A stretch of 42,669 bases of DNA from an uncultured Calditrichaceae bacterium (GCA_964416895.1 CAYQGB010000003.1:1-42669); one strand, 5' to 3'. Positions 311 to 42,011 are shown, numbered from the stretch's first letter. A program made the numbers and translations. The notes: a model not told the origin generated them from the letters alone.

Positions 311-360
311 AAGGTTGTCGGCTGTAGGCTGAGGGCTGTAGGTTGTTAGGTTATGTTATT
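311..360. repeat. 7-nt-periodic repeat tract (CTGTAGG/CTGAGGG/TTGTTAG type)
   Basis: aaggttgtcg gctgtagg ctgaggg ctgtagg ttgttag gttatgt read directly; period 7. Confidence 0.6.
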
Positions 361-5121: not shown

Positions 5122-5168
5122 AGACAATCTCCTCCGTTTGGTTCTAAGGAGCAGGCGTTCCCCCGTAG

Positions 5169-5339
5169 GACAGGCATCTTGCCTGTCATGACTTTTTCGG
5201 TCGGCGCCGGGATCAGGTGTTTTTAAGGACAGGCTGGAAGCCTGTCCTACCTTTTCGATCGGCGCCGGGATCAGTTCGAAGAGATCCACGGTGGTGCCGT
5301 AGTGGGCATCTTCGATGACAGGCTGAAAGCCTGTCCTAC
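5169..5339. repeat. three GACAGGC-N5-GCCTGTC hairpins interleaved with two degenerate copies of the etfA 3' end
   Basis: Hairpins at 5169-5187, 5226-5248 and 5317-5335. Segment 5249-5316 repeats the true etfA end (5343-5413); within it, gccgggatcagNtcgaagagatccacggtggtgccgtagtgggcat differs at one position. 5188-5225 is a shorter, more diverged copy. Confidence 0.85.
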
Positions 5340-6302
5340 CTACTTGAGTTTTTCGGTCAGGGCCGGGATCAGGTCGAAGAGATCCACGGTGGTGCCGTAG
5401 TGGGCATAGTCGAAGATGGGCGCGTTGGGATCGGTGTTCACGGCGATGATCAGTTCCGAATCTTTCATCCCCTCGATGTGTTCCGGCGCCCCGCTGATCC
5501 CCAGGGCCAGATAGAGTTTGGGTTTGACCTTCACCCCGGATTTGCCCACCTGACGGGTTTTGGGCAACCACTTGTTATCCACGATGGGGCGGGAGGCAGA
5601 GACCGCACCGCCCAGCACCTGAGCCAGTTCCTCGGCCATGGGGAGATTCTCTTCGCTTTGAATTCCCCGACCCACGCTGACCAGAATTTCCTGCTGGGTG
5701 ATGTCCACGTCGCCGGCTTCCGGCTCGATCAGTTGCTTGAACTGCACCCGGGGGGAAGCCACGCTTTCCGGGGCGGCGATTTCTTCTACTGCCGGGGAGC
5801 CTTCTTTGCGCCCGGCATCGGCGGGAAAGGAGCCGGCAATTACCGAGATCACGCAGCTATCCCCCTCCACCACCGATTCGGTGTTGATCTTACCCCCGTA
5901 CAGCTGGCTGATGACGGAGAGCCGGCCGTCTTTTACGGCCACATCCACCCCGTAGGAGACCAGAGGCAACTCCAGCGCCGCCGACACCCCCGAGGCCAAA
6001 TCCATGCCCATGGAGGTGTACGGAACCAGCGTCACCGCCGGCTGATTGGCTTTGACCACTTCGGTAAGGGCGGCGCAGTGAGCGTCGGGGTTAAAATTGG
6101 CCAGGTTGGGGTGATCCACGTACAGCACCTTATCCGCCGCGCCCAGTTGACCGGCCAGTTCCTTCACCCCGCTGCCCAGCAGCACGGCTGCCAGTTGACC
6201 GCCCAGGGCATCGGCCAGTTCCCGGCCTTTGCCTAACAATTCAAAGGTCACCTCTTCGATGTTTCCGTTCTGCTGTTCTACAACCACCAGCACGTTGCTC
6301 AT
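5340..6302 (-). CDS. etfA: electron transfer flavoprotein alpha subunit
   Basis: Typical EtfA C-terminal FAD domain (PKLYLALGISGAPEHIEGMKDSELIIAVNTDPNAPIF). 4-nt overlap with etfB. Confidence 0.93.
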   Translation of the reverse strand: MSNVLVVVEQQNGNIEEVTFELLGKGRELADALGGQLAAVLLGSGVKELAGQLGAADKVLYVDHPNLANFNPDAHCAALTEVVKANQPAVTLVPYTSMGMDLASGVSAALELPLVSYGVDVAVKDGRLSVISQLYGGKINTESVVEGDSCVISVIAGSFPADAGRKEGSPAVEEIAAPESVASPRVQFKQLIEPEAGDVDITQQEILVSVGRGIQSEENLPMAEELAQVLGGAVSASRPIVDNKWLPKTRQVGKSGVKVKPKLYLALGISGAPEHIEGMKDSELIIAVNTDPNAPIFDYAHYGTTVDLFDLIPALTEKLK

Positions 6303-7066: not shown

Positions 7067-7144
7067 GGTTTCCGTACCTCCGTATGATTGGTTGTGTTAT
7101 TTGCCAGATGATTCTCTGTCTGGTGATTAAGTCTCCGGGGAGAT

Positions 7145-7262
7145 GCGTATTCGTATTGCGTAATGCGTATTTTGTATTGGATTTCCCATCACGAGTTTCC
7201 CGTTCCATATTCCCAAATCCCCATTCCGCATTCCCCGGTTTTCCGCTACATTTCCCATTCCA
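7145..7262. repeat. 7-nt-periodic repeat tracts (CGTATTG/CGTAATG, then TTCCCNN)
   Basis: gcgtatt cgtattg cgtaatg cgtattt tgtattg followed by atttccc atcacga gtttccc gttccat attccca aatcccc attccgc attcccc. The tract runs into the last codons of the radical SAM gene. Confidence 0.6.
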
Positions 7263-8346
7263 CCATACGCCCGGCCATCGTTCGCCGATGAATTTCCGGT
7301 AGCAGGCGAATCCCCTCTTCAAAATCCACGATGCGGTTGATCAGGTAAAACAGATACATGGTGGTCAGCCAGTTGGTGAATTCCTGCTTGCTTCCCAGAT
7401 GTTTACGCAGGTTGAGCATGACCCAGGAAAAGTGCTCCCAGGTGTCAAAGCAGCTGTCACAATCCCGGTCGATGCCGGTGCAGCAACGCCGGGTGGTGCA
7501 GAAATCGGCGTTGTAGGCCCGGAAGTGGGGATTGTAGGGTTTGCCGTTGGCGATGCGCTCCCGATTGACCGGGTGATCGGCGGTGATGCTGGTGCATACG
7601 TCATATCCCCACCGCTCGTCGTAGAGCCAGCCGGTGGAGACCACTTCGGCGAGGTAGCGGGTCATCAGAATCCGGTCGGGGTAGCGCTCGATCATGCGCT
7701 CGATTTCCTCCCGCACCCGGTCAAAACCCTGCCGGTGATCCAGCTCCCCGCCCATCTGCTCCACATCCCCATAAAAGTTGAACAGCACCCGATTGCCGTT
7801 TTCCACGCACCGGGTAACCACCCGTTCGATCTCGTGGGTGTTGCCGGGGGTGACGGTGTAATACCAGAAAGCGCGGGGATCGTCCCGATAGTTGTTCAGG
7901 GCCCGGGCGAACACATCTACCCGCCCGCTTCCCCGAAGCTGTCGATCGGTTTCATGATCACCCCATACCGAGATGCCGATGGGCATGTTCTCGAACCCTT
8001 CGTAAGGGATACGCCGCAGGCCGTTGGTGGCCACGTTCATACGGAAATTGCGATAGATCTTGTGCAGTCGATCCAGCGCCAGGGTGGGTTCGCCCCCCAC
8101 CACGGTGACGAAATTGGTGCCCCGGGCCTTCTCCCGTTCGATGAAGGCCTCAAAAGCGGCCTCGTCCTTCCCCGGGAGGCGATGGCGATCCATGTTTTCC
8201 GCGAAGTAGTAGCATCCCACGCACCGAAGATTGCATACGTGGGTGAGATCCACGGAAATGGATCGCAACGGCCCCGCCTGCCGAATTTCGGTGTAGAGGC
8301 GGTTTAAAAACGGATCCTGCAGATATGTCCTTAGACTGTTTGCCAT
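7246..8346 (-). CDS. radical SAM protein of unknown function, Cys-rich C-terminal part
   Basis: CNLRCVGCYY (CxxxCxxC) and VVGGEPTL. Additional cluster-like cysteines CTTRRCCTGIDRDCDSC. No resemblance to the two LipS-like proteins outside the core. Confidence 0.85.
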   Translation of the reverse strand: MANSLRTYLQDPFLNRLYTEIRQAGPLRSISVDLTHVCNLRCVGCYYFAENMDRHRLPGKDEAAFEAFIEREKARGTNFVTVVGGEPTLALDRLHKIYRNFRMNVATNGLRRIPYEGFENMPIGISVWGDHETDRQLRGSGRVDVFARALNNYRDDPRAFWYYTVTPGNTHEIERVVTRCVENGNRVLFNFYGDVEQMGGELDHRQGFDRVREEIERMIERYPDRILMTRYLAEVVSTGWLYDERWGYDVCTSITADHPVNRERIANGKPYNPHFRAYNADFCTTRRCCTGIDRDCDSCFDTWEHFSWVMLNLRKHLGSKQEFTNWLTTMYLFYLINRIVDFEEGIRLLPEIHRRTMAGRMVEWEM

Positions 8347-8366
8347 AGTCGGATTCCGGGAAAATT

Positions 8367-8432
8367 GCGTATTGCGTAGTTCGTATTGCGTAGAAAAGGA
8401 TGAACTTACGCAATACGCAATACGAAATACGC
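8367..8432. repeat. long imperfect inverted repeat built from TACGCAA-type heptamers
   Basis: gcgtattgcgtagttcgtattgcgta (8367-8392) pairs with tacgcaatacgcaatacgaaatacgc (8407-8432) at 23 of 26 positions, with a 14-nt loop. Abuts the stop codon of the upstream gene. Confidence 0.85.
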
Positions 8433-9548
8433 CTACTCTCCGATAAACTCCTCTAATTGCAATTGCTCTACAATTTCCTTCTGATCTTCATCGTTGGGCA
8501 CGAAGGGATAATCCCGGTACGGCTCGCTGGGGCGATAGCTGCCGTAAGGGCGGGTGCAACCGGGTTCGCCGTTTTCGCCGGGACACCCGTTGGTCATAAA
8601 CGGCAACCCGGTGCGCACCACCTGCATGACCTGAGACAGGGGCGCTTTCAGGCGGATCAGGTTTCCGGCCTCGTCGAATTCCAGGCGATCCCGGGGCAAA
8701 TCGTAATCTTCCAGCAAACTCTTGACCAGTTGAATCCGCCGCCAGCGGGTAATGTGGGGCTTGGGATGTTCGCCCATCCGGGAATCCGGTTCGGGATTGA
8801 AACAAAACAGGTAAGCGAAGATCTGCCGACTCTTGAGGTAGTAGAACAGGTCAATGAGATCTTTATCGCTTTCCCCCAGACCCACCAGGGTGTGGCAGTT
8901 CACTTTCCAGGGGCCGAAGATTTCCCGGGACCAGTGGATGACGTCCCAGTAGTTCTGCCATTTCAATCCCCCCTGGGGCACATTGGTGCGGCGCTGAACG
9001 AAAACCTCCTCGGTGACCGCATCCAGTCCCACGCCGATCATATCCACCCCCAGCGCTTTGAAGGTCTTCAGCCGGTCGTAATTCAGCGTGGGGGGCGCCA
9101 CCAGGATGGACAGAGGCGTTTTCACTTTTTTCCGAATTCTCTCCGTGATGTCTGCCGTATCCCGATAGGCGTGCCCGTGGGTGACCATGGAGATGCACAG
9201 CCGGGTCAGCCGATCCTGATATTCCGCCATGCGCTCCACCAGCAGATCGGTTTCCACCAGGGGCCAGTCCACCCGGATGAAGGATTTCTCCTCGTATCGC
9301 CCCGGGCGGGTGCGGGCCAGGCCGCAGTAGGCGCAATCGGAAAAGCAGCCCTGCTCGTAGTTCAGCAGGATGTTGATCCCGCCGAACTCGAACCGGCGGG
9401 CGAATCGCCCGGAGATCAACCGCAGGGCGATAGCGCTGGCGCTGCTGATGCGCACATAATCCGGGCTGATTTGAAGCGGCTCCTGAACGCACGGTTCCGC
9501 GAGGGGGATGTTGCCGGAGATGAGTCGGTCAGGGTTTATGCGAGACAT
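8433..9548 (-). CDS. lipS1: radical SAM protein, BioB/LipA-like fold; LipS1-like lipoyl synthase component (which LipS it is remains tentative)
   Basis: CFSDCAYCGLAR radical SAM motif and GLGESDKDL as in the BioB/ThiH/HydE class. Extra Cys pairs near the C-terminus (NGCPGENGEPGC). Flanks the LplA-type ligase, as in sHdr-associated lipoylation loci as I recall them. Confidence 0.7.
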   Translation of the reverse strand: MSRINPDRLISGNIPLAEPCVQEPLQISPDYVRISSASAIALRLISGRFARRFEFGGINILLNYEQGCFSDCAYCGLARTRPGRYEEKSFIRVDWPLVETDLLVERMAEYQDRLTRLCISMVTHGHAYRDTADITERIRKKVKTPLSILVAPPTLNYDRLKTFKALGVDMIGVGLDAVTEEVFVQRRTNVPQGGLKWQNYWDVIHWSREIFGPWKVNCHTLVGLGESDKDLIDLFYYLKSRQIFAYLFCFNPEPDSRMGEHPKPHITRWRRIQLVKSLLEDYDLPRDRLEFDEAGNLIRLKAPLSQVMQVVRTGLPFMTNGCPGENGEPGCTRPYGSYRPSEPYRDYPFVPNDEDQKEIVEQLQLEEFIGE

Positions 9549-9579: not shown

Positions 9580-10719
9580 TCATGCGGTTTGGGATACCTT
9601 CGGGTAGTAACAGGAGCCCCGGTAGGTAAAATGGTGCTCCATACGGGCGCTGCGGGCGGCTTTCCAGATGGCTTCGGCGATGGCCCCGGCAGGAAGGGGA
9701 GCGGCAGCTTGATTCTGAGCCGGAAATGCCTTCAGGGCGTTTTCGACCTCGCTCTCGATGGAGGCTCGATCCAGCGGGCTCCATTTCAGCCGGGATTCGA
9801 TGTGGCGAAAGGCCGCCTCATGGTCCAGGAAATCCCCGGTGATGAGCACGCTTTTGATGGTTTCGCCTTTGAGGGCGATATACACCCGGAGCAGTCCGGC
9901 GGGGGTTTTCTTCAGGCTCATGCCGGTCATATCTGCCTGGGGGGAATTCTGAAACAGCCATTCTTCCCGGCGATATTTCTCCCGGGCCAGTCGCTCGATG
10001 GCCGCGCGTTCTTCGGTAGAGATGGGGGTGGGCTGGAGTGTCATCTGAAAAAGCCGTTCAAAACTCCCGGCGATGCGGGTGCGAATCTCACCCACACTAA
10101 CCTTGCGCCCCAGTTCCCGGGAAACGGTGGTCAGCCGCTGGCGCACGCTGCGGATCATCACCCGATCGGAATATTTTTCCCGGGGAATGTTCAGCACTTT
10201 TAGCATCAGAGGAATATCCAGATCCACCAGCAAACTGGCGTGAAACAGCAGGGCGCCATGGGGATCGTAGTACACCCCCAGCCCGGCGATTTTGCGCCCG
10301 TTTACTTCCAGATCGTTTTTGGGGCGAAAGCGAGCTTCAATGCCCAGTTCCCGCAGGGCCTGAATCAGCGGCCCGGAAAAGCGCCGATAGGCTTCCGCCG
10401 GATGGGCCAGCGCCGGATCCGGCGCGGTGCTCAGGGTCAGGCACACGCCCAGCTGATCTTCCCCCATGAGGATGGCGCCGCCGCCGGTGGGTCGCCGCCC
10501 GATCTGCACCCCCAGTCGCCGACAGTTTTCCAGATGCAACTCCGCTTCCATATTCTGGAATCGCCCCACCAGAGCACAATGGGAACGGTAGGTGTACAGC
10601 CGCAGGGTCGGCTCCGGGCGAGGATGCTGCACCGGATAGTAGCGCATCAGAAATTCGTCGGTTGCCAGCCCGTAGTCGGCGGAGACCTGATCTTCTTCGA
10701 TGTAACGCCAGGGAACCAT
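9580..10719 (-). CDS. lipoate-protein ligase, LplA family, fused catalytic plus accessory domains (sLpl(AB)-like)
   Basis: RRPTGGGAILMGEDQLGVCL and NDLEVNGRKIAGLG (the catalytic Lys motif of BPL/LPL enzymes). At 379 aa it is longer than the catalytic domain alone. Confidence 0.85.
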   Translation of the reverse strand: MVPWRYIEEDQVSADYGLATDEFLMRYYPVQHPRPEPTLRLYTYRSHCALVGRFQNMEAELHLENCRRLGVQIGRRPTGGGAILMGEDQLGVCLTLSTAPDPALAHPAEAYRRFSGPLIQALRELGIEARFRPKNDLEVNGRKIAGLGVYYDPHGALLFHASLLVDLDIPLMLKVLNIPREKYSDRVMIRSVRQRLTTVSRELGRKVSVGEIRTRIAGSFERLFQMTLQPTPISTEERAAIERLAREKYRREEWLFQNSPQADMTGMSLKKTPAGLLRVYIALKGETIKSVLITGDFLDHEAAFRHIESRLKWSPLDRASIESEVENALKAFPAQNQAAAPLPAGAIAEAIWKAARSARMEHHFTYRGSCYYPKVSQTA

Positions 10720-10846
10720 GAGGGTATCAGGTTATATTAGTTGGACATTTTATGAGTTTTGAATTTGTTTCTGAATCAAATGAGTAACATTCCATGAACC
10801 ACGGTTAAGCGCACACATACCCGGTTCAAAGCACCGGGAACGTATG

Positions 10847-10887
10847 GCGTATTTCGCATTGCGTAATGGATCAACTACGCAATACGC
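10847..10887. repeat. TACGCAA-type heptamer inverted repeat
   Basis: gcgtatttcgcattgcgta ... tacgcaatacgc. Confidence 0.6.
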
Positions 10888-10949
10888 ACTTCTCAAACTG
10901 TCACGTGATAGTACACCCTCGATACCCCAATATCCTGATACTCCGCTTC

Positions 10950-11915
10950 CTAATGCCCACAGGAACAGGAACTTTCCGAAAACACCGGTTTCAGTCCTCT
11001 GGCGCGGGCATGGGCCACGATGCCCTCGGCCGGGTAGGCGATGCCGTTCAGACCGTAGTCCACCGCCGCCCGATCCACCGCCAGCTTGTGCTCCCCTAAT
11101 GGTCGGGCGCAGCCCAGCATCAGCAGGGTATCCGGCATCCGGGTGCGGGCTTCGTAAAAAAAGTGCTCGATGTCTTCCAGGGCCGGGGGAGCCACATGCT
11201 GCATGGGCGTGCCCACCAGCGGGGTCAAAATGACCAGCACCAGGGAGTGCACCGGATACCGGCGAATGAGATTCAAGGCTTGATATTCCCCCAGAAATTT
11301 CCCGAAATGCAATCCCAGGATGATGTGCGGGCGCACGCTGTGGCCGTATTGAGTCAGGTAGGCCAGAGAGCGGTCAAAATCCTCCACGGTGAGGTTCAGA
11401 TGATACACTTCCCGGATGGTGCGTTCATCTCCGATGATGTCCAGCATTACCCCATCCACACCGGCTTCTTTCAGACCTGCGGCGGTGGGTTCATCCACTA
11501 CTCCGCAGTGCACCATGATCCGCAGCCCCAGTTCCCGCTTGGCCCGGGCGATGTCCGGAAAGTATTTCTTCAGGGGCACCGCGCCGTTGGGCTGGGAGCC
11601 GCCGCTGATCAACACCCCGGTGGTGCCGTTCTCCGCCAGCCGCCGACACAGGTTGAACAGGCCCTCCCGGGGATTGAGCGCCACCATCGGCTCCAGAATT
11701 TTGGATTTGCAGTGCTCGCACTGAAGGGCGCAGGCGCTTCCGGTAAGGCTGATGGGGCGAAAGGCCTGGGGGGTCTGTTGTCGAAACTCCTCGGTCTGAA
11801 AGTGCTTTAAACCGGGAGCAAAAAAGTAGATCTCGTCGCAGAAGTTGTTTCGACGTACGGCGAAAGCGCGCTTGCGCAAGAAATCGACTTCCGGGGTTAA
11901 GACTTCGCCAACCAT
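10950..11915 (-). CDS. lipS2: radical SAM protein; LipS2-like lipoyl synthase component (assignment tentative)
   Basis: CALQCEHC radical SAM motif. Start moved to MVGEVLTPEV (ATG 11915, GAGGA about 8 nt upstream), giving a 19-nt overlap with lbpA. Second radical SAM flanking the ligase. Confidence 0.7.
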   Translation of the reverse strand: MVGEVLTPEVDFLRKRAFAVRRNNFCDEIYFFAPGLKHFQTEEFRQQTPQAFRPISLTGSACALQCEHCKSKILEPMVALNPREGLFNLCRRLAENGTTGVLISGGSQPNGAVPLKKYFPDIARAKRELGLRIMVHCGVVDEPTAAGLKEAGVDGVMLDIIGDERTIREVYHLNLTVEDFDRSLAYLTQYGHSVRPHIILGLHFGKFLGEYQALNLIRRYPVHSLVLVILTPLVGTPMQHVAPPALEDIEHFFYEARTRMPDTLLMLGCARPLGEHKLAVDRAAVDYGLNGIAYPAEGIVAHARARGLKPVFSESSCSCGH

Positions 11916-12402: not shown

Positions 12403-12490
12403 GGAAACCGTTTAAACGGTTTCCGGATGTTTTTTTAAACCGTTTAAACGGTTTAAAATCCTCCCGCGTAAAACCGTTTAAACGGTTTTA
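12403..12490. promoter_or_regulatory. three copies of the perfect palindrome AACCGTTTAAACGGTT
   Basis: ggAAACCGTTTAAACGGTTTcc 12403-12424, ttAAACCGTTTAAACGGTTTaa 12435-12456 and taAAACCGTTTAAACGGTTTta 12469-12490. Centre-to-centre spacing 32 and 34 bp. Lies between shdrB3-like and lbpA. Confidence 0.8.
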
Positions 12491-13753
12491 CACCCCCATC
12501 GCCTCCACCACCAGCTCGATGATGTCCCGCACAATCAATTTGCCTTCATTACCGGTTGACTTTACCGCATCTTCAAACCGGGAAACCTCGTAGGGGCAGC
12601 ACACCGCCAGCACCTCGGCGCCGGTTTCCACCGCCTCCCGCACCCGGCGTTCGGAAAGCCGCTCCGCCACATGGTCGGCCATGAACCCGTCCAGCCACAT
12701 GCCCCCACCGCCACCGCCGCAGCAGTAGCTGTTCTGTTTGCACCGCCCCATCTCGATCAATTCTATCCCCGGAATGGAGGTGAGCATCTTCCGGGGAGCC
12801 TCAAACTCCCCGTGGTGCCGTCCCAGGTAGCAGGGATCGTGGAAAGTCACCCTGTAGCTCAGGGGCTTCTTGAACTCCAGTTGATCCATCAGGGGCGCCA
12901 GGAAGGTGGTATAGTGCACCACGTCGAACTCCCCGCCGTATTTGGGATATTCCTTCTTGAAGGCATTCAGGGCATGGGGATCGGTGACCAGAATCCGGTT
13001 GAACTTATATCGCTTGAGGGTGCGAATATTTTCCTCGGCGAATTCCTCGAACAGCCCCTTTTCTCCCGCCAGGCGCTGGGAGTCGCAAGAGCACTTTTCC
13101 TCCGGGCCGAGAATGCCGAAGTCGATTCCCAGCGCGTTCAGCACCTTTGCCAGCGCCCGACTGGCGTCGATTCCCCGGGGGTGATAGGAGGGATAGCACT
13201 CCACGAACCAGAGGATATCCGCCTGTTTTTTGGTCTTCATCAGGGGAACCGGCACTCCGGCGCCTTTGGCCCAGTCGGCGCGCTTGCGGGGGGATTCTCC
13301 CAGGGGATTGCCGTATTCAAAGGTGTTTTCAAACACCTCCTGAAGTTCGGCGGGAACGTTGCCGTCCAGCACCGCCACCTCCCGCACTGCGGGCATGATC
13401 TGGATCATGTCCACATTTTTTGGGCACACCCGCAGGCAGTTCATGCAGGTGGTGCATTTCCACAAATCCGCATCGTTGAACAGATCGATTCCCGCCTGCA
13501 CGTTGCGGTAAATCTTGCGGGGGCCGTAATCGCCGCCCACAATATCCACCGGGCACACCCCCACACACTGGGCGCACTGGTAACACCAGCCCAGCGACTC
13601 CCCGCCTTCCAGCGCGGTGATCTTATCCATCACCTCGGTTTCGTAATCAAAGATGGGGCGCTGGGTGAACATGCGGTTCCAGTCGCCGGTCAGTTCAATC
13701 CCATCGACAACGACTTTTTCCAGTTCCTGAATTTGGCTCTTATCCACCGGCAT
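12488..13753 (-). CDS. shdrB3: fused HdrC/HdrB-like (HdrD-like) Fe-S protein; sHdrB3-like
   Basis: CYQCAQCVGVCP and CTTCMNCLRVCP, then CCG-domain motifs (DPCYLGRH, YCCGGGGGG). The C-terminus STGNEGKLIVRDIIELVVEA is nearly the same as the Emo C-terminus. Confidence 0.85.
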   Translation of the reverse strand: MPVDKSQIQELEKVVVDGIELTGDWNRMFTQRPIFDYETEVMDKITALEGGESLGWCYQCAQCVGVCPVDIVGGDYGPRKIYRNVQAGIDLFNDADLWKCTTCMNCLRVCPKNVDMIQIMPAVREVAVLDGNVPAELQEVFENTFEYGNPLGESPRKRADWAKGAGVPVPLMKTKKQADILWFVECYPSYHPRGIDASRALAKVLNALGIDFGILGPEEKCSCDSQRLAGEKGLFEEFAEENIRTLKRYKFNRILVTDPHALNAFKKEYPKYGGEFDVVHYTTFLAPLMDQLEFKKPLSYRVTFHDPCYLGRHHGEFEAPRKMLTSIPGIELIEMGRCKQNSYCCGGGGGGMWLDGFMADHVAERLSERRVREAVETGAEVLAVCCPYEVSRFEDAVKSTGNEGKLIVRDIIELVVEAMGV

Positions 13754-14558: not shown

Positions 14559-14850
14559 GGTCACCTTTCGACAAGCTCAGGGTGACCGATCCGGGTCATG
14601 CTGAGCCTGTCGAAGCATGACCGCTTCGGGTTATCCTTAGCCCGTTTCATAATTGCTTGTAGGGTTTCAAAACACAGCTTTTCCGCCTCCTTCCACCGCT
14701 CCTGCGGTGGAAGGAAGAGAAGGCGCTCCCGCGCCTACCTATTCTTCCACCTAACCCTACAAGAATTACTGAAATAGACCACTTAGCTTGTTGAAGCATG
14801 AGCGCTCCGGGTTATCCGGGGCTGCTGAGCCTGTCGAAGCATGCCCCCCG
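14559..14850. repeat. nested REP/MITE-like palindromic element inside the shdr operon
   Basis: Hairpins GGTCACC-ttcgacaagctca-GGTGACC (14559-14587), GGTCATGC-tgagcctgtcgaa-GCATGACC (14594-14622) and a third at 14817-14848. Outer inverted repeat cttgtagggtt (14655-14665) / aaccctacaag (14752-14762) around the central hairpin ccttccaccgc-tcct-gcggtggaagg. Confidence 0.75.
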
Positions 14851-18528: not shown

Positions 18529-18572
18529 CGTATTGCGTAATGCGTATTTCGTGAGGACATTACGCAATACGC
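18529..18572. repeat. TACGCAA-type heptamer inverted repeat
   Basis: cgtattgcgtaatgcgtatttcg ... tacgcaatacgc. The following acgctattcc is shared with the copy at 32746-32765. Confidence 0.7.
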
Positions 18573-18641
18573 TATTCCCGATTTTTCTTATCTCCACGTA
18601 TGTAATCGCGCACCCCAATACCCCTTAATATCCTGATTCCC

Positions 18642-19022: not shown

Positions 19023-19100
19023 TGCTTACCTCCGATTTTTGAATAGTGATGTAAATTGGCGCTTTTCGTTGGTCTAAAAAGTTTCCAGGTCTTTTGCCAT

Positions 19101-19294
19101 CGTGCGTGATGCGTGATTATTTGCCTTCATTCGGTGTGTCCTAGGCTTACGAAAAACAGCCAAAACCCGATGACTTCCGCTTTATCTCTTGATACGTGAT
19201 ACGTGATTGTTTTTTACATATATGATTATTTTTTCACGCATTACGCATCACGTTTCACGCATCACGCATTACCATTACGCATCACGTTTCACGC
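19101..19294. repeat. CACGCAT/CACGTTT heptamer arrays in inverted orientation around an AT-rich core
   Basis: cgtgcgtgatgcgtgat (19101-), gatacgtgatacgtgat (19191-), AT core tgttttttacatatatgattatttttt, then tcacgcattacgcatcacgtttcacgcatcacgcattaccattacgcatcacgtttcacgc (19234-19294). Confidence 0.8.
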
Positions 19295-19635
19295 TTTTCG
19301 GTTTCTGCTTCGGGTAAATCATCTTCCAAAGAAATAGTGCAGGGTTTGAAGGGATCGGCCAGCACGATCAGGTGCTGCCGTTCCCAATCCCATTCCTCCT
19401 CCAGTTCCATCATGTGCTCGTGCAGATCCTCTTTCCGGGGGCTGTGGCGGATCAGCCGCAGCTTTACCGGGGTCTGGTTTGCGTTGACCTCCAGAACTTC
19501 CAACAGCAGCCATTCCCCGGCTTTTTCCTGATAAATCCGGGCAATGTCCGGCAATGTGAGAATTTTGTCTTCCCATTCACTCACGGCTTTCCCATCAGCT
19601 CTGGGCAATTTTTTCTGACAGAGTGGCAATGGCAT
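19282..19635 (-). CDS. small hypothetical protein (alternative GTG start at 19584)
   Basis: ORF directly after the second ligase gene. The ATG start overlaps that gene by 41 nt, whereas the GTG at 19584 lies 11 nt after its stop. Acidic, no motif. Its last codons lie in the heptamer repeat. Confidence 0.45.
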   Translation of the reverse strand: MPLPLCQKKLPRADGKAVSEWEDKILTLPDIARIYQEKAGEWLLLEVLEVNANQTPVKLRLIRHSPRKEDLHEHMMELEEEWDWERQHLIVLADPFKPCTISLEDDLPEAETEKRET

Positions 19636-21948: not shown

Positions 21949-21964
21949 CGCAAAAGGCATACCA
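21949..21964 (-). promoter_or_regulatory. sigma-54 (-24/-12) promoter candidate for the tusA-like/tusA/dsrE operon
   Basis: The minus strand reads TGGTATG-CCTT-TTGCG against consensus TGGCACG-N4-TTGCW, with correct GG/GC spacing. The -12 element lies about 35 nt upstream of the ATG at 21914, with a GAAAGGA RBS in between. Two sigma-54 activators are encoded in the window. Confidence 0.55.
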
Positions 21965-22155: not shown

Positions 22156-22340
22156 GTAACTATTCAGGTACCCACAGAGAAGGTGCTTAGAGGCAATACC
22201 GAAGGGCTTTTCTGCGATTTCTCCCTCACCCCCGGCCCCTCCCCGGCGGGAGAGGGGAGTTTTATTCCGCCGGAGCGGAATGAGGGGAAAATGACAAGAC
22301 AAAAAACAGGCAGCACTCTGGAAAAGACCTGAATAGTTAC
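22156..22340. mobile_element. MITE-like element with 14-bp terminal inverted repeats
   Basis: gtaactattcaggt (22156-22169) and acctgaatagttac (22327-22340) are perfect reverse complements. The interior holds hairpins CCCCTC-cccggcggg-GAGGGG and ATTCCGC-cgga-GCGGAAT. No coding capacity. Confidence 0.5.
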
Positions 22341-24076: not shown

Positions 24077-24182
24077 AGGCGCATACTCGTTTCCGGTTTA
24101 TCTTTATTCCCCATACAAAAAAGGAGGTGTGGAAAGGACTGCCCCTCCCCACACCTCTGGTCCAGCCCATCCAGGCCCAACC

Positions 24183-27050: not shown

Positions 27051-27240
27051 CGGTATAGGTGGTCTCCTTTTTGAGTGTTGTTGCTCGGGAATTGAGAGCA
27101 TTGCTTTGTCATACTGAGCCTGTCGAAGTATGACAAAAACCGCTAAATAGTTGTCACCCTTCGACAAGCTCAGGGTGACACAAGACAGCTAAAACATGAG
27201 CAACACTCCTCAAGGAAACTACCGCCGGTATATTGGCGGG
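27051..27240. mobile_element. REP/MITE-like nested palindromic element, same hairpin family as 14559-14850
   Basis: GTCATAC-tgagcctgtcgaa-GTATGAC (27107-27137) and GTCACCC-ttcgacaagctca-GGGTGAC (27151-27183). Imperfect outer inverted repeat ggtctcctttttgagtgttgttgctc / gagcaacactcctcaaggaaactacc. Confidence 0.6.
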
Positions 27241-27319: not shown

Positions 27320-28672
27320 TTACAGGAGATGAAACTTCTTCATCCGGGTGCGCAACTGCTTGCGAGAAATGCCCAGCAGTTCCGCGGCTTTGCTCTGGTT
27401 CCAGTTGGTTTTTTCCAGAGCTTTCAGGATGGCGGTTCGTTCCAGGGTGGGGAGGTGGAGGGTTTCCGGTTCGGAGGTGGGGGCAGGGGAGGGGGCCTCG
27501 GCCAGCTTTTGCAAATTGGCGGGGAGGTTATCCACCACGATGGTGTTGTATCGGCTCATTACCACGGCGCGCTCCACGGTGTTGCGTAACTCCCGCACAT
27601 TGCCCGGCCAGTGGTAGCGCAGCAGCAGTTCCTCCACCGCCCGGTCAAATCCATGAAGGGATTTCTGATTTTCCCGGGCGAATTTCTGAAGAAAGTGATG
27701 GGCCAGAGGCAAAATGTCTTCCGGGCGTTCCCGCAGGGGGGGCAACTGAATGGAGATGACGTTGAGCCGGTAGTACAGGTCTTCCCGAAAAGTGCCCTGT
27801 TGCACGGCCTGTTCCAGATGCTTGTTGGTGGCGGCGATTAACCGGCACTTCACCGAGACCGGGCGATTGCCGCCGATGCGGAAGAACGAGCGCTCCTGCA
27901 GCACTCGCAGCAGTTTGACCTGGAGCAGTTTGGGCAATTCCCCGATTTCATCCAGAAACAGGGTGCCCTCCTGAGCCAGCTCCAGCTTGCCGATGGAGGT
28001 CTGATAAGCGCCGGTATAAGCCCCTTTCTCGTGGCCGAACAGCTCGTTTTCCATCAGTTCGTGGGGAATGGCTCCACAGTCCAGAGGAATGAACGGCGCT
28101 TCCCGCCGGGGGGAAAACTGGTGGATGGCCCGGGCGATCAGTTCTTTGCCCGTGCCGGATTCGCCGGAGATGAGCACCGTGGACGAGGCCTGGCTGACCA
28201 GCCGAACCATCTCCATAACCCGGCGCATGGCCTCACTTCGGGCGATGATCCCCGCCGTCCGGGCAGCCTGTTGCCAGGAATCCACCGGCTCGGTTTCCGC
28301 CTCTCCCTGCGCCCGTTGCAGGGTGTGCTCGATGATCATCACCACCTCGTCGTGATCCAGAGGCTTGGTCAGATAGTTGGTGGCCCCGGCGCGCATGGCC
28401 TCCACCGCATGTTCGATGTTGCCGTAGGCGGTGATCATCAGAATGGGAATAACCGGATTCACCGCCCGAATTTTTTTCAACAGGGTCAGCCCGTCGGTGC
28501 CTTTGAGCCTGTAATCGGTGATGATCAGGTCGATGTGCAGCTCGCGGGTAAAGTACGTCCAGGCCTCTTCGGCGCTCTGGGCGGTGAGCACCTGAAAGCC
28601 GTGATGGCTCAGGTTGGCCTTCATCACTTTGAGGATATTTTTCTCGTCATCTACGATGAGGATGGTGCACAT
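27320..28672 (-). CDS. sigma-54-dependent response regulator (REC-AAA+-Fis HTH, NtrC family)
   Basis: REC domain (ILIVDDE...), Walker [15 protein letters not shown] variant of the GAFTGA loop, and C-terminal [19 protein letters not shown]. Confidence 0.93.
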
Positions 28673-30177
28673 GGCTCAGGCCTCGATTGGAGCCGATGTT
28701 CGGTTTTGAGTGCATTGTCCGGAGCTACCGGGAGGGAAAAGGCCACCCGGGTGCCCTCTCCGGGATGGCTGGTTATGGTAATTTTGCCATGATGCCGCTG
28801 CACGATCTTCTGGGCCACCGCCAGCCCCAGGCCGGTACCCCCGGGTTTATCGGTATAAAAGGGCTTGAAGGCTTTTTCCACCTGTTCCGGGGACATGCCC
28901 ACGCCGTTATCGGCCACCTCGATGATCACCTGCGCACCCTCCTGCCGGGCGGAAATGGTGATTTGCCCTTCCCCGGAAACCGCATCCACGGCATTGAGCA
29001 GCAAATTCAACAGCACCTGATTGATCTGAGGGGGATCGGCCAGCACCTGCACGCCTTCGGGGAGGTTCAACGACAGGCGTATTCCCTTTTCCGCCAGATC
29101 CGGCTTCAACAGCTCCACCGATTTGCAGATCAGGGGTTGTAGCTCGCAGGGGGTCAGTTGCACCTCGATCGGTCGGGCGTATTCCAGCAAGCTGGTAACC
29201 ATGTTGTTGAGATTGGTCACGGAGTCTTCGATGACCCCGGTATATTCCGCTACCAGAGCGTTTTTCACCGTCTTGCGCAGATAGCCGGTAGCTCCCCGGA
29301 TGGAATATAAGGCGTTGCGGATTTCGTGGGCAACCTTCATGGCCACTTCCCCCAGGGCGGCCATGGTGTGCATCATCTGTTTTTCCTCGGTCAGCTGTTC
29401 CAGTTCCCGGAGGTAATTCCGCAAACTGTGGGCCATGCGGCGGAATCCCTGGTGCAACTGTTCAATTTCATCGGCAGGGTTTGAAGTTCCGGCAAACGCC
29501 GGTTCCCCATCCGGTTGTACTTCTTCTTCTAACTGCTGCAATTCGTTGCGGAGATGCTGGATGGGGCGGGTCAGGCGATTGGCCACCAGAATCGCTCCGG
29601 CCACCCCGATGACGAACACAATGGCAAACAGCAGAAGCAATTTTTGCCCCACATGGAACATGTTGGCGCGAATATTCTCGGCGACTTTTTCCCGGTCAAA
29701 TTCCACCCGCAGCAGCCCCAGCAATTCGCCTTGTATTTCCAGCGGCGCCAGATAAACGCCTTCTTCCAGGAGGAAAATTCGAGGGAGGGAATCCCGGGCG
29801 GCCCGGGGGAGAAGCGGGGTTTCCTGAGCCAGTTCCTGATCAATTTCCCCCAGGCGCTCGATGGCGGAGGAAGCAATCACCCGGAAGTGTGGATCATACA
29901 CTTCGATGGAGGCGATGGAGTGCCCCACCAGGCTGTGAATGCGGTTCATCAGATACTGCAGATCCTGCACCAGCAGCGGTTCCAGGAAATCATCCCGCAG
30001 GGAGCCGGTGGTCTCCCGCTGGGTGGCGCGTATCTGATGCAGAAAATCATTGCGGTTGGCAGAAAGCACCACCGCCGAAACGGTAATGAAGATGACCGTG
30101 ATCAACAGAATGATGGACACCAGCAGCTTGGTGCGGATGGAAAAGGAATGATGAAATGTGTCGATCCAGCGTCGCAT
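28651..30177 (-). CDS. membrane sensor histidine kinase (periplasmic domain-HAMP-HisKA-HATPase)
   Basis: H-box AHEIRNALYSIRG, N-box LLNLLLNAVDA, G-boxes DNGVGM and GTGLGLAV. Two TM segments. Confidence 0.9.
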   Translation of the reverse strand: MRRWIDTFHHSFSIRTKLLVSIILLITVIFITVSAVVLSANRNDFLHQIRATQRETTGSLRDDFLEPLLVQDLQYLMNRIHSLVGHSIASIEVYDPHFRVIASSAIERLGEIDQELAQETPLLPRAARDSLPRIFLLEEGVYLAPLEIQGELLGLLRVEFDREKVAENIRANMFHVGQKLLLLFAIVFVIGVAGAILVANRLTRPIQHLRNELQQLEEEVQPDGEPAFAGTSNPADEIEQLHQGFRRMAHSLRNYLRELEQLTEEKQMMHTMAALGEVAMKVAHEIRNALYSIRGATGYLRKTVKNALVAEYTGVIEDSVTNLNNMVTSLLEYARPIEVQLTPCELQPLICKSVELLKPDLAEKGIRLSLNLPEGVQVLADPPQINQVLLNLLLNAVDAVSGEGQITISARQEGAQVIIEVADNGVGMSPEQVEKAFKPFYTDKPGGTGLGLAVAQKIVQRHHGKITITSHPGEGTRVAFSLPVAPDNALKTEHRLQSRPEPCAPSSS

Positions 30178-30254
30178 GGGTATATGCTTACCGGGAGTAG
30201 ATACGGGAATTTTTGAACCGGATCAAAATTCTTCTCGATAAAATGCTATCTTGA

Positions 30255-30571
30255 GTGATGCGTGATGCGTGATGCCCCGCCACGGCGGGGTGAAAAAACA
30301 ATCGTATATACATAAAAAATATCACGTTTCACGCATCACGTTTCACGAGGCAAAACCGACATTACCAGAGGTTCCGCTTTTCTCAAAACGCGACTAAACA
30401 TCCACCGTAATTACGCTTCACGCATCACGTTTCACGAGGTAAAACCAACATCACCAGAGGTTGCGCTCTCCTCAAAACACGACTAAACATCCACCGTAAT
30501 TACGTTTCACGCATCACGTTTCACGAGGCAAAACCAGCATCACCAGAGGTTCCGCTTTCCTCAAAACACGA
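30255..30571. repeat. heptamer inverted arm plus 2.8 tandem copies of an 89-bp repeat
   Basis: gtgatgcgtgatgcgtgatgc (30255-30275), hairpin CCCCGCC-ac-GGCGGGG and an AT core. The unit acgtttcacgcatcacgtttcacgagg...ccaccgtaatt starts at 30324, 30413 and 30502 (period 89, about 8 mismatches per unit). The last copy supplies the final codons and stop of the upstream gene. Confidence 0.85.
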
Positions 30572-32084
30572 CCATGGAGACGCGGGAATGTACCACCACA
30601 TACCAGGGTTCTGCCTCCGGGCTGCGGGCCAGGATGCGAATTTGGGTGGTATCCACATCGTTTTCCAGTAATTTTAACACGCCGGCGCTTATCGCCCCGG
30701 CATCCACCTCCCCGCTGTATACCAGAAGCAACACCCGCTCGTGGGTGCCGGCTTCTTCCACCTGTAGTTCGTCCCACCGAACCCCCCGGGCCTGCATCAG
30801 GGGTCGTTGGGACCGATAGCCGCTGATCGACCACCGGGAAACCACCGCAACGCGGCGGCCACGCAAATCGCTCAGGTCGGAGATCGGCCCATCGGCGCGG
30901 GTGATCCATACGCCCCGGCGATTCGGAAATGGCGGTTGAGAGGCCGGTAGTACAAAGCGCTGCCGATACGGCGTTTCCCCTACGGCGTTCCACAGGGAGG
31001 CCGGGACCACCGCGATGTCGAACTTCCCCGCCCGAAGCTGCTCCAGGTAAGCCTCCGGAGATTCCGCGATTATCGGGAACAGCGGCATTGTCATCCGGCG
31101 GCTCCATCGGCGAAGCAGAGGATCGAACTGGCGAAGCAGGGCCGCGGGGGTGAAAAACGGGGGCAGCCCCACCCGCAAACCGGAGGCGGCTTCCGGCAGG
31201 GCCTCCTCGCCGGAGATCCCGCTGCGCAGCAACAGGCGCACGGTGTGGTAATCGCTGTCCTGCACCGCCACAAATCCATCGATGCTCTCCCCCAGAGGCT
31301 TCAGAATATCCCGATGGCGAAGGGTGTCCAGTTCCAGGAAGGCCTGTCGCAGGCGGAGGCGCATTTCCGGGGCAAGGTGGGCATGCACCGCGATGAGGTT
31401 GTTGGGAATGGGAAAGGATTCCCGGATCATCCGCAGGCCCCGGGAGAGATAGGCCCGGGCGGCCCGACGGGAGACGGCGGTGGCGTCATACAGCCGGGCC
31501 AGCACCGCATACAGAGCGCTCTCGTCGCTGCCCAGGCGGGCGACTTCCAGGAAGTCCCCCGGCAGAAAACCGGCGGATTGCAGCATCACCCGGGGCACCA
31601 GCCCGGAGGCGGCGCACTGATATTTCCCGTAAGCAAAGGTATGTTCCTTCAAATCCGCCAGCACCTGCATCGGGCTGTTCTCCCGCACGACCACCACGCT
31701 GGTGGTGGTGGTTTCCCCTTCCCGGCGAAGGGTTACCAGCGGCTCCACCGGGAATCTTGCCCGCAACCGGCAGTACAGCACCGGGCAGAGGAAGGCCACA
31801 TCCACCTGCCCCTGCTCGAACTTACGGCTTATCTCTTCCATGCTCCGGGGGATGGACAGCTTCAGGGCCGCGCCGGTGGAGTGTTCCAGATACCGCTTGA
31901 GGGGCAGGAAACGGCCGTACAGGGTTCGGGGAGATTCGATGGGAAGCAGGAGCACCTGCAGGGTGTCCCGGGCCGTCATCAGACCGGTGAGGCACAGGAG
32001 CATTACCGGGAACAGCCGACTGAAGCGGCTCCTTCCCGGTGGAGAATCTTTGCCCGGGGGATGTTGGCGGTGTTGCCGGATCAT
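30561..32084 (-). CDS. tandem PhnD-like (phosphonate-type) periplasmic substrate-binding protein
   Basis: Two repeats of the PhnD-like SBP pattern (e.g. LLLPIESPRTLYGRFLPLKRYLE...DVAFLCP and, in the second half, RAGKFDIAVVPA). N-terminal hydrophobic anchor. Directly upstream of the kinase gene. Confidence 0.7.
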   Translation of the reverse strand: MIRQHRQHPPGKDSPPGRSRFSRLFPVMLLCLTGLMTARDTLQVLLLPIESPRTLYGRFLPLKRYLEHSTGAALKLSIPRSMEEISRKFEQGQVDVAFLCPVLYCRLRARFPVEPLVTLRREGETTTTSVVVVRENSPMQVLADLKEHTFAYGKYQCAASGLVPRVMLQSAGFLPGDFLEVARLGSDESALYAVLARLYDATAVSRRAARAYLSRGLRMIRESFPIPNNLIAVHAHLAPEMRLRLRQAFLELDTLRHRDILKPLGESIDGFVAVQDSDYHTVRLLLRSGISGEEALPEAASGLRVGLPPFFTPAALLRQFDPLLRRWSRRMTMPLFPIIAESPEAYLEQLRAGKFDIAVVPASLWNAVGETPYRQRFVLPASQPPFPNRRGVWITRADGPISDLSDLRGRRVAVVSRWSISGYRSQRPLMQARGVRWDELQVEEAGTHERVLLLVYSGEVDAGAISAGVLKLLENDVDTTQIRILARSPEAEPWYVVVHSRVSMVVF

Positions 32085-32598: not shown

Positions 32599-32686
32599 CA
32601 GTATCTCCTCCAGTGTTAATCCACTGTAATGATGTTTATTAAGAACGTTCTCAGAAGAATTCTGAAGCCGAGGCTCGAGTTGGCTG

Positions 32687-32758
32687 TTGCGTATTGCGTA
32701 TCCTGTCGGTGGAAGATTCGATCTTTCAATTTCAGAACGGCTTTATTACGCAATACGC
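32687..32758. repeat. TACGCAA-type heptamer inverted repeat with a 45-nt loop
   Basis: ttgcgtattgcgta (32687-32700) and ttacgcaatacgc (32746-32758). Confidence 0.7.
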
Positions 32759-33462
32759 TATTCCACCGGCCACTCAATGGGATCCAGAGCAAACGTGCCG
32801 TGGGAAAGCACGATTTTCCCTCCGGCGACTTTTTCCATCAATTGCAAGTAGTCTGCCAGTTCGTTCAGTTCCACCCCGTTCAGTCGGGCCAGGGTTTCCA
32901 CATCATCCATGCGGCCGGCTACACGCTGTACCACCCGGCTGATCACGTAGCATTGCCGGGAAAAGTTGGCGTTGGCTTCGGCGATGTATCCGATGATGTC
33001 CGGGTAAAGCACCACAAAGCGGGTGAATCGGCGGTTGATGTTGGGTAGCAGTTGATTGCGCATGGTGTATCGGCGAATCCCCCGGTCGAACTTGAGCACG
33101 CTGTGCAGGTCGCCGTCGATGTATTCGCCGTGCAGGTAGGCGATGTCTTCCCGGCGGGGCACCGGCTCCCAGCCGAACTCCAGGGCCGATCCCAGAAACA
33201 CAAATCGGGCTTCCTCAGGGGAGAAATTCGGCAACGCATTGGTCAGAAGCGTTTGGGGGATTTCGGCGATGATCCGGTAGGCCCATCGTTCCCGATCATC
33301 CCGGAGCGCGGCCCTTTCGGCGGTGAACCGGGGGTGAAGCTCCGGCCAGCGCACAAAAAGCTCTCCTGCATCGGTGGGCAATTCCTTGCTCAGGCGGCGA
33401 AGCACCTCCCCCGACTCCGTACCCGGAGGAAAGAAAAGCATCTTTTGAATGGCGATGCACAT
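32758..33462 (-). CDS. hypothetical protein (234 aa)
   Basis: Long ORF with coding-like composition, last gene of the wHTH/Zn-finger unit. No motif recognised. Start uncertain (M1 or M8). Confidence 0.55.
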   Translation of the reverse strand: MCIAIQKMLFFPPGTESGEVLRRLSKELPTDAGELFVRWPELHPRFTAERAALRDDRERWAYRIIAEIPQTLLTNALPNFSPEEARFVFLGSALEFGWEPVPRREDIAYLHGEYIDGDLHSVLKFDRGIRRYTMRNQLLPNINRRFTRFVVLYPDIIGYIAEANANFSRQCYVISRVVQRVAGRMDDVETLARLNGVELNELADYLQLMEKVAGGKIVLSHGTFALDPIEWPVE

Positions 33463-34390: not shown

Positions 34391-34440
34391 AGAAGTGTTC
34401 CTTATTCAATCACGGTTCATATGCATGGCTAATATGCCTT

Positions 34441-34468
34441 CGTGAAACGTAATGCGTGAAACGTGATA
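34441..34468. repeat. CGTGAAA/CGTAATG heptamer tract
   Basis: cgtgaaa cgtaatg cgtgaaa cgtgata. Confidence 0.6.
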
Positions 34469-34482
34469 ACTTAGAGTTGATG

Positions 34483-37369: not shown

Positions 37370-37556
37370 GGCAATCCTTCCCCGGTGTGGTATTATCCAG
37401 AACACCTTGTAAAAATACGCAAATCTGATGCCGATCACATTACTTAAGTTACGGTATGTTGGCTTATTTTCAAAATCTCTTGGGGAATGTATTCCGGAGA
37501 GTTTGTACTCAGGTGCGGCAAGGAACAAAACGGTTTTGAGGATTTTAGCAGACTTT

Positions 37557-37628
37557 GCGTGAAACGTGATACGTGAAACGTGAGCGGTTTTCCGATCACG
37601 TTTCACGCATCACGTTTCACGTTTCACG
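37557..37628. repeat. long heptamer-based inverted repeat in the divergent intergenic region
   Basis: gcgtgaaacgtgatacgtgaaacgtga (37557-37583), 12-nt loop, tcacgtttcacgcatcacgtttcacgtttcacg (37596-37628). Confidence 0.85.
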
Positions 37629-41967: not shown

Positions 41968-41983
41968 GGTATTCCCAATTAAA

Positions 41984-42011
41984 GAGTAAAGACGAAAGAT
42001 GAAAGATTAAA
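41984..42011. repeat. GANNAAA heptamer tract
   Basis: gagtaaa gacgaaa gatgaaa gattaaa. Confidence 0.55.

Follow-up and report, generated by a model that had tools for sequence, protein, structure and literature searches.

What are the arrays of 7-nt units that occupy the spacers of a 42,669-nt contig from an uncultured Calditrichaceae bacterium (CAYQGB010000003.1 of assembly GCA_964416895.1; this whole stretch is referred to as the window): dedicated signals in RNA or DNA, or microsatellites that happen to fold? An initial annotation of the window had described TACGCAA/TTGCGTA heptamers forming hairpins at most operon boundaries, and had suggested a role as terminator, stabiliser, processing site or protein-binding array. 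The analysis presented here favours, with a probability of roughly 55%, heptanucleotide microsatellites of the class that comprises short tandemly repeated repetitive (STRR) sequences and long simple sequence repeats (LSSRs), made by slippage and reshuffled in unconstrained spacers, the hairpins being a consequence of their paired layout.

Tandem arrays were detected using Tandem Repeats Finder and a separate periodicity scan, and the two methods agreed. The periodicity scan identified 13 period-7 tracts in the window, compared with 0.4 in mononucleotide shuffles and just 0-1 tracts for each of periods 4, 5, 8 and 10-13, and a stricter scan with dinucleotide-preserving shuffles retained five period-7 tracts against 0.15. 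Tandem Repeats Finder reported 20 period-7 rows and two period-14 rows. The tracts thus share with LSSRs a head-to-tail arrangement of 5-11 nt units above chance expectation. All strong tracts lie outside the Pfam-supported gene map of the window and are hence intergenic, in line with LSSR units that are not a multiple of three and stay out of coding sequence.

At least five unit families were observed within 42.7 kb, and the arrays were shown to be spread from 313 to 42011 across unrelated gene clusters. The five TACGCAA-type loci described by the initial annotation are present, as are its period-7 tracts with other units (at 313-346, 7203-7234 and 41978-42011). A second family, CACGTTT/CACGCAT/GTGATGC, is as prominent as TACGCAA and had been overlooked (19099-19117, 19190-19207, 19234-19300, 30252-30275, 30320-30526, 34440-34480 and 37558-37628); it includes a well-conserved 26-mer, CACGTTTCACGCATCACGTTTCACG, with copies at least 92% alike at 19234, 30320-30526, 34440 and 37558-37628. 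By our own count, arrays are held by ~11 of the ~22 intergenic regions of at least 60 nt in the window, with several located inside apparent operons and one between divergent genes, so that their assignment to most operon boundaries was overstated. Most begin 0-10 nt past a stop codon and end 17-120 nt short of the next start. The individual features, with the free energy (dG, in kcal/mol) and z score of the predicted fold where applicable, are:

313..346: GGCTGTA-type single-arm array of ~5 units, at ~110 nt downstream of the stop codon ending minus-strand gene 457-1569; no fold (z -0.5)
7143..7180: TACGCAA-family single-arm array, GCGTATT-type on the plus strand, ~5 units
7181..7262: degenerate ATTCCCC array (GGGGAAT on the sense, i.e. 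minus, strand), abutting and slightly overlapping the stop of the radical-SAM gene 7246-8346
8364..8432: paired TACGCAA array with a 5' arm at 8364-8392 (TTGCGTA), a 14-nt loop and a 3' arm at 8407-8432 (TACGCAA); directly after the stop at 8433-8435, ending 17 nt before the next start at 8346; dG -32.2, z -5.6
10841..10890: paired TACGCAA array; ~4 units in the left arm, 2 in the right; dG -17.5, z -2.5
10923..10944: degenerate GGGGTAT/GGATATT-family remnant just after the stop at 10950
18529..18572: paired TACGCAA/TACGCAT array in the dsrE-lbpA spacer; dG -26.7, z -4.7
18612..18639: degenerate GGGGTAT/GGATATT-family remnant just after the dsrE stop at 18642
19099..19300: CACGCAT/CACGTTT-family cluster (19099-19117, 19190-19207 and 19234-19300) between hyp117 and dsrE
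30252..30348: paired array with a GTGATGC x3 arm at 30252-30275 and a ATCACGTTTCACGCATCACG arm at 30320-30348; dG -41, z -5.5
30277-30292: small GC hairpin enclosed by the 30252..30348 pair
30321..30587: 89-bp tandem repeat of 2.8-3 copies, 83-90% alike, the unit being a 24-nt heptamer array plus 65 nt (Tandem Repeats Finder: period 89, 91% matches)
32683..32757: paired TACGCAA array (arms 32683-32701 and 32740-32757, loop 38 nt), abutting the stop at 32758; dG -26, z -3.6
34440..34480: CGTGAAA/CGTAATG single-arm array, 2 nt after the stop of an NtrC-type regulator at 34483; no local fold
37558..37628: paired CGTGAAA/TCACGTT array with 30-nt arms, 93% complementary, between divergent genes for a histidine kinase (minus) and a Ser/Thr kinase (plus); dG -50.8, z -9.1
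41978..42011 (+): AAAGATG-type single-arm array, 10 nt past the stop of the plus-strand Ser/Thr kinase gene

The sequences at 10923-10944 and 18612-18639 had been described as differing by exactly one 7-nt unit; the difference amounts to 2 nt by alignment and 6 nt by the coordinates originally given, and the two are related, decayed members of the GGGGTAT/GGATATT family. The last copy of the 89-bp repeat overlaps the 3' end of a gene encoding a PhnD-like binding protein, and the repeat seems to have originated by duplication of this gene end plus the downstream array.

The seven paired arrays were shown to fold far below shuffled controls (dG -17 to -51 kcal/mol, z -2.5 to -9.1), with hairpins still predicted at 60-75 °C. 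No folding beyond controls was observed for single-arm arrays. The reported pairing of 23 of 26 positions in the 8367-8432 copy was recovered exactly (8367-8392 with 8407-8432, 26 nt, 88%). Of the TACGCAA-type loci initially described, 7145-7180 is a single arm without a hairpin.

Adjacent arrays of the same family are inverted in 28 cases and direct in two. Among 41 inverted pairs, 37 of which were informative, the G-rich arm lies 5' in 35 and the C-rich arm in two (p = 1e-8); the same order is found in families other than TACGCAA (14 G-first, compared with two) and in 7/7 pairs of the window. Because the paired structure is symmetric, this polarity is independent of strand. The arrangement of two closely spaced, opposite-strand arrays of one unit with the G-rich arm first is that of Xanthomonas heptamer pairs, but TACGCAA and CACGTTT contain no G-tract and are not G-quadruplex-capable, as the Xanthomonas-type units are. 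The polarity may reflect selection against exposing the C-rich, Rho-attracting arm ahead of its partner's transcription, or it may stem from a strand bias in the template switch that makes the inverted copy.

Four independent contigs (NCBI metagenome-assembled genome (MAG) GCA_003695965.1; Logan L001, L002, L218 and L219) match the arrays they span without gaps at 99.7-100% identity, and this agreement of independent assemblies rules out an assembly artefact. Confinement to a single locus was also looked for and discounted, as the repeats are multi-copy in the source metagenome. Array depth is 5-38x that of the flanks, with many distinct flanks and loops: depth rises from ~25 to 515 across 8310-8450 when contigs of three metagenomes are mapped on the window, reaches 1016 at 19243-19283 compared with 27 in the flanks, and 75 contigs align to 1.2 kb of the window. 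Dozens of contigs bear the same arms with other loops and flanks, several of them at the depth of this genome, indicative of tandem heptamers in many dispersed non-coding copies, as in STRR sequences. Short-read contigs from this population often terminate in arrays. In practical terms, the arrays break short-read MAG assemblies and leave intergenic regions unalignable between close strains.

Turnover between related strains was evident at the three loci compared. In the strain present in run X3, 14 nt are missing at 10844 (left arm) and 7 nt at 10876 (right arm), i.e. whole-unit changes of copy number as known for LSSRs between related strains. Across etfA and etfB this strain is 97.2% identical to the window, and its spacer upstream of etfB cannot be aligned with it: in place of the 7181-7262 array stands a GGGATAT/ATATCCC inverted pair, heptameric again. 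Furthermore, 19034-19320 is swapped for 177 other nt, and the left arm of 18529-18572 carries two transitions. The nearest relative found among metagenome contigs, L123, is syntenic with 81% LipS identity, which is too distant to resolve fine turnover; its orthologous spacers hold other repeats, including purine-rich heptamer arrays right after two stop codons. An AAGATCA/AAGATTA array past a stop codon of L123 is similar to 41978..42011 of the window. Following lipS, where the window has a TACGCAA hairpin, the L123 spacer (9875-10045) contains six tandem 27-nt copies with the hairpin GTCAAAACTYGTTTTGAC. sHdr loci of other organisms (717 kb) contain 22 period-7 tracts, equivalent to 0.03 per kb compared with 0.30 per kb in the window, and this ten-fold lower density indicates that the trait belongs to the lineage and not to the gene cluster.

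The distribution beyond this lineage was assessed by an exact scan for TACGCAATACGCAATACG in one genome per GTDB species. At least 119 loci match, compared with ~17 expected by chance under uniform base composition (own arithmetic). According to record titles, the matches listed include 69 from Chloroflexota (Anaerolineae, Caldilineaceae, Ardenticatenaceae, Thermoflexales and others), 22 from Planctomycetota, seven from Kiritimatiellota or Lentisphaerota, seven from Bacteroidota, Rhodothermota or Balneolota, three from Atribacterota and 11 others; viral contigs yielded just seven matches per pattern, too few to be informative. Period 7 dominates in these (at least 119) loci, with 328 tracts compared with 16-77 for periods 5, 6, 8 and 9, a figure biased by the choice of loci through a heptamer. 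Co-occurring arrays draw on a small vocabulary, in which CACGTTT represents the commonest unrelated family and CAGT-type units are enriched, and an identical 26-mer occurs in the window and in one Anaerolineae MAG. Heptamer arrays are thus abundant beyond their classic hosts, in Calditrichota and, as judged by one pattern scan, massively in Chloroflexota and Planctomycetota.

In an Anaerolineae MAG, a ~200-nt module was observed in tandem and on several contigs (L094 2380-2960; L031 1-800; L007 1-400). The conserved part of the module contains CTATTTTCAAAGCAG, and every module carries a different heptamer hairpin. In an unrelated Chloroflexota MAG (L038 2560-2575), the motif TATTTTCAAAGCAG likewise comes after a heptamer hairpin, in this case a nested one. 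Rfam scans of L094, L031 and L007 at curated (gathering) thresholds returned no match.

How, then, might such arrays arise? Under the favoured explanation, replication slippage and recombination would create, expand, contract and replace arrays in unconstrained intergenic DNA of a host lineage prone to 7-nt slippage, and growth would stop on meeting a constraint, either the stop codon on the upstream side or the region controlling the next gene. In many cases a pair of inverted arrays from a single unit family is present, the G-rich arm lying 5', and a transcribed pair would necessarily put a long, heat-stable stem-loop into polycistronic RNA. The hairpin would then arise as a by-product; any effect it has, for instance pausing or protection of 3' ends, would at most be mild and non-specific, resembling that of repetitive extragenic palindromic (REP) sequences, and it would serve neither as a dedicated terminator nor as an operator; function at any single locus is probably weak or absent. 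Heptanucleotides are the commonest LSSR class in prokaryotes, with polymerase slippage as the proposed cause, as far as the survey of Mrazek (2007) is summarized in PMC4679880 and PMC4692102.

The order of variant units agrees with slippage as the probable generator: it is not mirrored between the two arms (642 matches, compared with 636 in unit-shuffled arms), and the arms therefore evolve independently, as slippage predicts. Pairing would persist simply since both arms are periodic. The position of arrays next to stop codons, with 17-120 nt to the next start, fits growth into unconstrained DNA as well as a role in the 3' untranslated region (3'-UTR).

Several observations weigh against this explanation. 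Pure neutral slippage leaves the strict polarity (35/37) unexplained, and likewise the recurrence of the TACGCAA, CACGTTT/CACGCAT, GGGTATT and CAGT-type vocabulary in Calditrichota, Chloroflexota and Planctomycetota. In the window, 9/10 arrays adjoin a stop codon, which a 3'-UTR function would predict likewise. Gene calls in the other genomes, on which the positional tests described below depend, are heuristic and based on GC by codon position, and none of the RNA runs contains this sequence.

Could the paired arrays instead be selected RNA elements, resembling REP sequences or bacterial interspersed mosaic elements (BIMEs), that block 3'-to-5' exonucleases or slow RNA polymerase and so tune genes within operons such as sHdr-LbpA? 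This possibility is considered unlikely, albeit worth retaining. Consistent with it are the placement of most window arrays 0-10 nt after a stop and 17-120 nt from the next start, the hairpins predicted to remain folded at 60-75 °C, and the presence of some hairpin-forming repeat in almost all long spacers of the window. The L123 spacer after lipS differs in sequence yet stays structured, and each of the two X3 substitutions in the 18529-18572 stem would leave a G-U pair in the sense RNA, a result that is not significant with n = 2. However, the sense strand has no fold-energy advantage: among 21 pairs with a defined direction, sense was more stable in eight and antisense in 13, without bias. 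The two arms do not mirror each other in their variant units, several arrays have a single arm and no structure, and the strong hairpin at 37558-37628 lies in a divergent promoter region. Nor are 3' ends enriched in the wider sample. As open reading frames (ORFs) running through arrays confounded a first count of positions, arrays were masked afterwards; the 193 elements analysed in other genomes then displayed no 3'-end preference and were no closer to stops than to starts. Their contexts (135 tandem, 36 divergent and 22 convergent) follow the shares of intergenic length (63%, 22% and 15%). Unpaired arrays exhibited a weak strand bias (77 compared with 53, p = 0.04). Scans for Rfam families and tRNAs in the window plus four related loci produced no matches.

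A second alternative is that the arrays might be cooperative binding sites of a protein reading 7-bp units, either similar to the omega repressor or nucleoid-associated. The orientation of the pairs, as strict as a dimeric or oligomeric reader would impose, and a restricted unit vocabulary common to several phyla would suit such a protein. Conversely, the presence of at least five unrelated unit families in 42.7 kb would require several readers, one family has replaced another in a spacer between ~97% identical strains, flanking genes elsewhere are functionally unrelated, and no candidate protein was identified. The orientation observed here is, moreover, presumably the diverging one in the omega convention, to which omega would bind poorly. 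In favour of such a reader, a study of Nostoc speculates on a heptamer-binding partner (bioRxiv 10.1101/2022.06.06.494920). On balance, binding by such a protein is doubtful.

Equally doubtful is the idea that the shared vocabulary and the near-absolute G-first polarity are the footprint of dedicated, horizontally spread machinery and not of passive slippage. Such machinery might consist of a protein that reads heptads, or of an enzyme adding or copying 7-nt units; if true, the arrays would form a genome-wide functional system, e.g. in nucleoid or transcript organization.

Mobility was also considered, in the form of elements resembling MITEs (miniature transposable elements with inverted repeats) or the paired REP elements known as REPINs, spread by a transposase such as RAYT. 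Several properties recall mobile elements, namely the multi-copy status with the same arms beside many flanks in the metagenome, the contigs that break at arrays, the ~200-nt modules with their heptamer hairpins on several contigs of an Anaerolineae MAG, and a few copies on viral contigs. However, the copies have no fixed length, loop or termini, and their length changes in 7-nt steps. Neither target-site duplications nor clean empty sites were found in the strain comparisons, and no window protein scanned against Pfam matched a transposase family, making transposition a very unlikely origin.

The leading idea of the initial annotation, i.e. that the hairpins are intrinsic terminators marking operon ends, fared worse still and is regarded as highly improbable. 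Stable stems do occur downstream of stop codons, and the 8364-8432 hairpin is followed by AAUUUUCC, its tail being the only U-rich one. The remaining hairpins lack a U-tract, whereas an intrinsic terminator would have one immediately behind a GC-rich stem-loop where a transcription unit ends. In scans of the window for canonical promoters and terminators, no enrichment was seen and the heptamer hairpins were not picked up. The genome does possess a canonical terminator, the only clear one in the window (24124-24157, minus strand), with a 15-bp stem, a 4-nt loop and a CTTTTTT tail (T6), 26 nt after the stop of an FCSD/SQR-like gene. Heptamer hairpins, by contrast, also occur within likely operons (lipS-lipS here and paaA-paaB in the Chloroflexota locus L104) and, in one case, between divergent genes, and convergent spacers show no excess. 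Together with a context that follows spacer length, the absence of a sense bias and the unmirrored arms, these results argue against a role at operon boundaries.

Finally, the CACGTTTCACGCATCACGTTTCACG 26-mer as an enhancer site (upstream activating sequence) of the two NtrC-type sigma-54 activators in the window can be dismissed almost entirely. Enhancers of this type would be expected to be regulon-specific and to lie upstream of a GG-N10-GC promoter by 80-200 nt. Copies are indeed situated upstream of dsrE (19234) and of either kinase-regulator operon (30320-30526 and 37558-37628), and another follows the second regulator gene (34440), but the same arrays stand beside unrelated genes in Anaerolineae and are ~38-fold over-represented in the metagenome, no enrichment of sigma-54 promoter matches was seen in the window, and the best candidate promoter (21964-21949, upstream of tusA) has no heptamers and instead a perfect 14-nt inverted repeat further upstream.

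The window has a G+C content of 57%, with nearly all genes on the minus strand (457 to 37606). The host MAG is of hot-spring origin and labelled Calditrichota: the window is matched at 99.7% identity by contigs of GCA_003695965.1, and the label is borne by proteins that share its 90% clusters. An outer-membrane FadL-type gene and the sigma-54 activators agree with this placement. Based on Pfam, 457-26809 represents a sulfur-oxidation cluster of the sHdr-LbpA type, with the full set of genes present in this member of the Calditrichota. It encodes HdrA/B/C-like proteins, two GcvH-like lipoate-binding proteins (lbpA), three radical-SAM (lipS-like) proteins, two lipoate-protein ligases sLpl(AB), EtfAB with an HdrD-like partner, DsrE/DsrE2, two TusA, SoxZ, an FCSD/SQR-like flavoprotein and a sulfur transporter. 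Outside this cluster, Pfam matches identified two pairs of kinase and NtrC-type regulator, as well as a large Ser/Thr kinase on the plus strand. The two pairs form paralogous operons (27320-30177 and 34483-37606), each encoding a histidine kinase and an NtrC-type sigma-54 activator, with regulator-gene stretches 71-82% identical in DNA.

The sigma-54 promoter candidate mentioned above, TGGTATGCCTTTTGCG (21949-21964, minus strand), is located ~35 nt upstream of the first tusA-like ORF. The inverted repeat consists of GTAACTATTCAGGT and ACCTGAATAGTTAC (22156-22169 and 22327-22340), 200-370 nt further upstream, and may be bound by the NtrC-type activators whose genes are close by. Another strong sigma-54 match, TGGCAGACTACTTGCA, is present at 32843-32858 (minus strand).

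Other repeats were also observed in the window. The 3' end of etfA is duplicated beyond its stop (5165-5421): 5252-5323 is 88% like 5350-5421, with a third copy, a partial one, at 5189-5218, and the first two copies are bracketed, downstream of the stop, by inverted arms (5165-5189 and 5315-5339). The small palindrome AAACCGTTTAAACGGTTT occurs three times in tandem between an hdrC/B-like gene and lbpA (12405-12495; spacing 32-34 nt), representing another type of hairpin repeat that occupies a spacer. A dispersed REP-like 27-mer, GTCATGCTGAGCCTGTCGAAGCATGAC, with a 7-bp stem is found in two spacers (14595-14621, 14819-14845 and 27108-27134; 85-93% alike).

How do the heptamer arrays compare with known systems? 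Mazel et al. reportedly described STRR sequences in heterocystous cyanobacteria in 1990, with CCCCAGT, TTGGTCA and CAACAGT as the classic units. The arrays of the window resemble them as tandem, non-coding heptanucleotides with many dispersed copies and several families per genome, and the proposal of an STRR-like system in a non-cyanobacterium is borne out by the Calditrichota label of the MAG. They differ in taxon, in their main units, which are not the classic ones (a resemblance to STRR1 is limited to the degenerate GGGGAAT/GGGGTAT arrays), and in the dominance of a paired inverted layout.

REP sequences are fixed, conserved palindromes of 20-40 nt that are mobilized by RAYT transposases. 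Like REP, BIME and REPIN elements of Enterobacteria and Pseudomonas, the arrays are extragenic, hairpin-forming and multi-copy, often intercistronic or 3', and sometimes inverted doublets. They are, however, microsatellite arrays of variable length without fixed ends, in which arm length, unit variants and loops differ at every locus. The omega repressor of plasmid pSM19035 is a ribbon-helix-helix dimer that polymerizes on contiguous WATCACW heptads in an orientation-sensitive manner. Contiguous 7-bp units in direct or inverted sets are common to omega operators and the present arrays, and CACGCAT units contain an ATCAC sequence that would correspond to the core of omega heptads. Omega operators comprise a few plasmid sites with a known reader, in contrast to the dozens of sites, many families and rapid turnover found here.

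The LSSR survey of Mrazek, Guo and Shah (2007), to the extent reported in PMC4679880, describes units of 5-11 nt that are intergenic and phylogenetically scattered, with heptanucleotides most abundant; its ten richest genomes comprise four from Burkholderia, two from Cyanobacteria, three from Actinobacteria and one from Xanthomonas. Calditrichota, Chloroflexota and Planctomycetota are absent from these ten, and neither arm polarity nor a shared vocabulary is described in that account of the survey. For Caldithrix abyssi, the genome paper reports an 18-nt palindrome; heptamer arrays did not turn up where its text mentions repeats or intergenic sequence.

The TAACTGA repeats of marine Beggiatoaceae, Cyanobacteria and Bacteroidetes (MacGregor 2015, PMC4679880) similarly represent a single intergenic heptamer that recurs in distant phyla without an obvious mechanism of transfer. 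In the loci from other genomes, TACGCAA arrays are accompanied by ACTGATT-type arrays, whose unit is a single mismatch away from TAACTGA. TAACTGA forms 169 direct sets and one inverted set, just upstream of start codons, whereas inverted pairs are common here and the arrays abut stop codons.

The closest counterparts are the intergenic tandem heptamers of Xanthomonas (GGGAATC) and Nostoc (GGGGA(T/C)T), present at ~180 sites per genome (Rehm et al. 2015, PMC4692102). In Xanthomonas, 70-75 sites are convergent, stem-loop-capable pairs; in both genera, array length varies among related strains and the repeats are mostly transcribed, from either strand (PMC4692102). The GGGAATC pairs exhibit the same G-rich-arm-first polarity as the pairs analysed here, and the GGGGAAT array at 7181-7262 is close to the Nostoc unit. 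In contrast to both genera, the main units here are not G-tracts and form no G-quadruplex, the host is a thermophilic member of the Calditrichota, and several families coexist. Turnover is also faster than in Xanthomonas, with whole spacers replaced at ~97% identity; of the Xcc repeats, by comparison, 83% persist in Xac (PMC4692102).

The kind of repeat is therefore already known, as is its paired polar layout, though the latter only for one G-tract family; what is new here is the host phylum, the unit families and the generalized polarity rule. STRR sequences have been known since 1990 and the LSSR class since 2007. Different phyla employ the same few units, and the G-first polarity of convergent pairs, described first for Xanthomonas, extends over unit families as well as phyla, regularities for which any model of origin or function must account.

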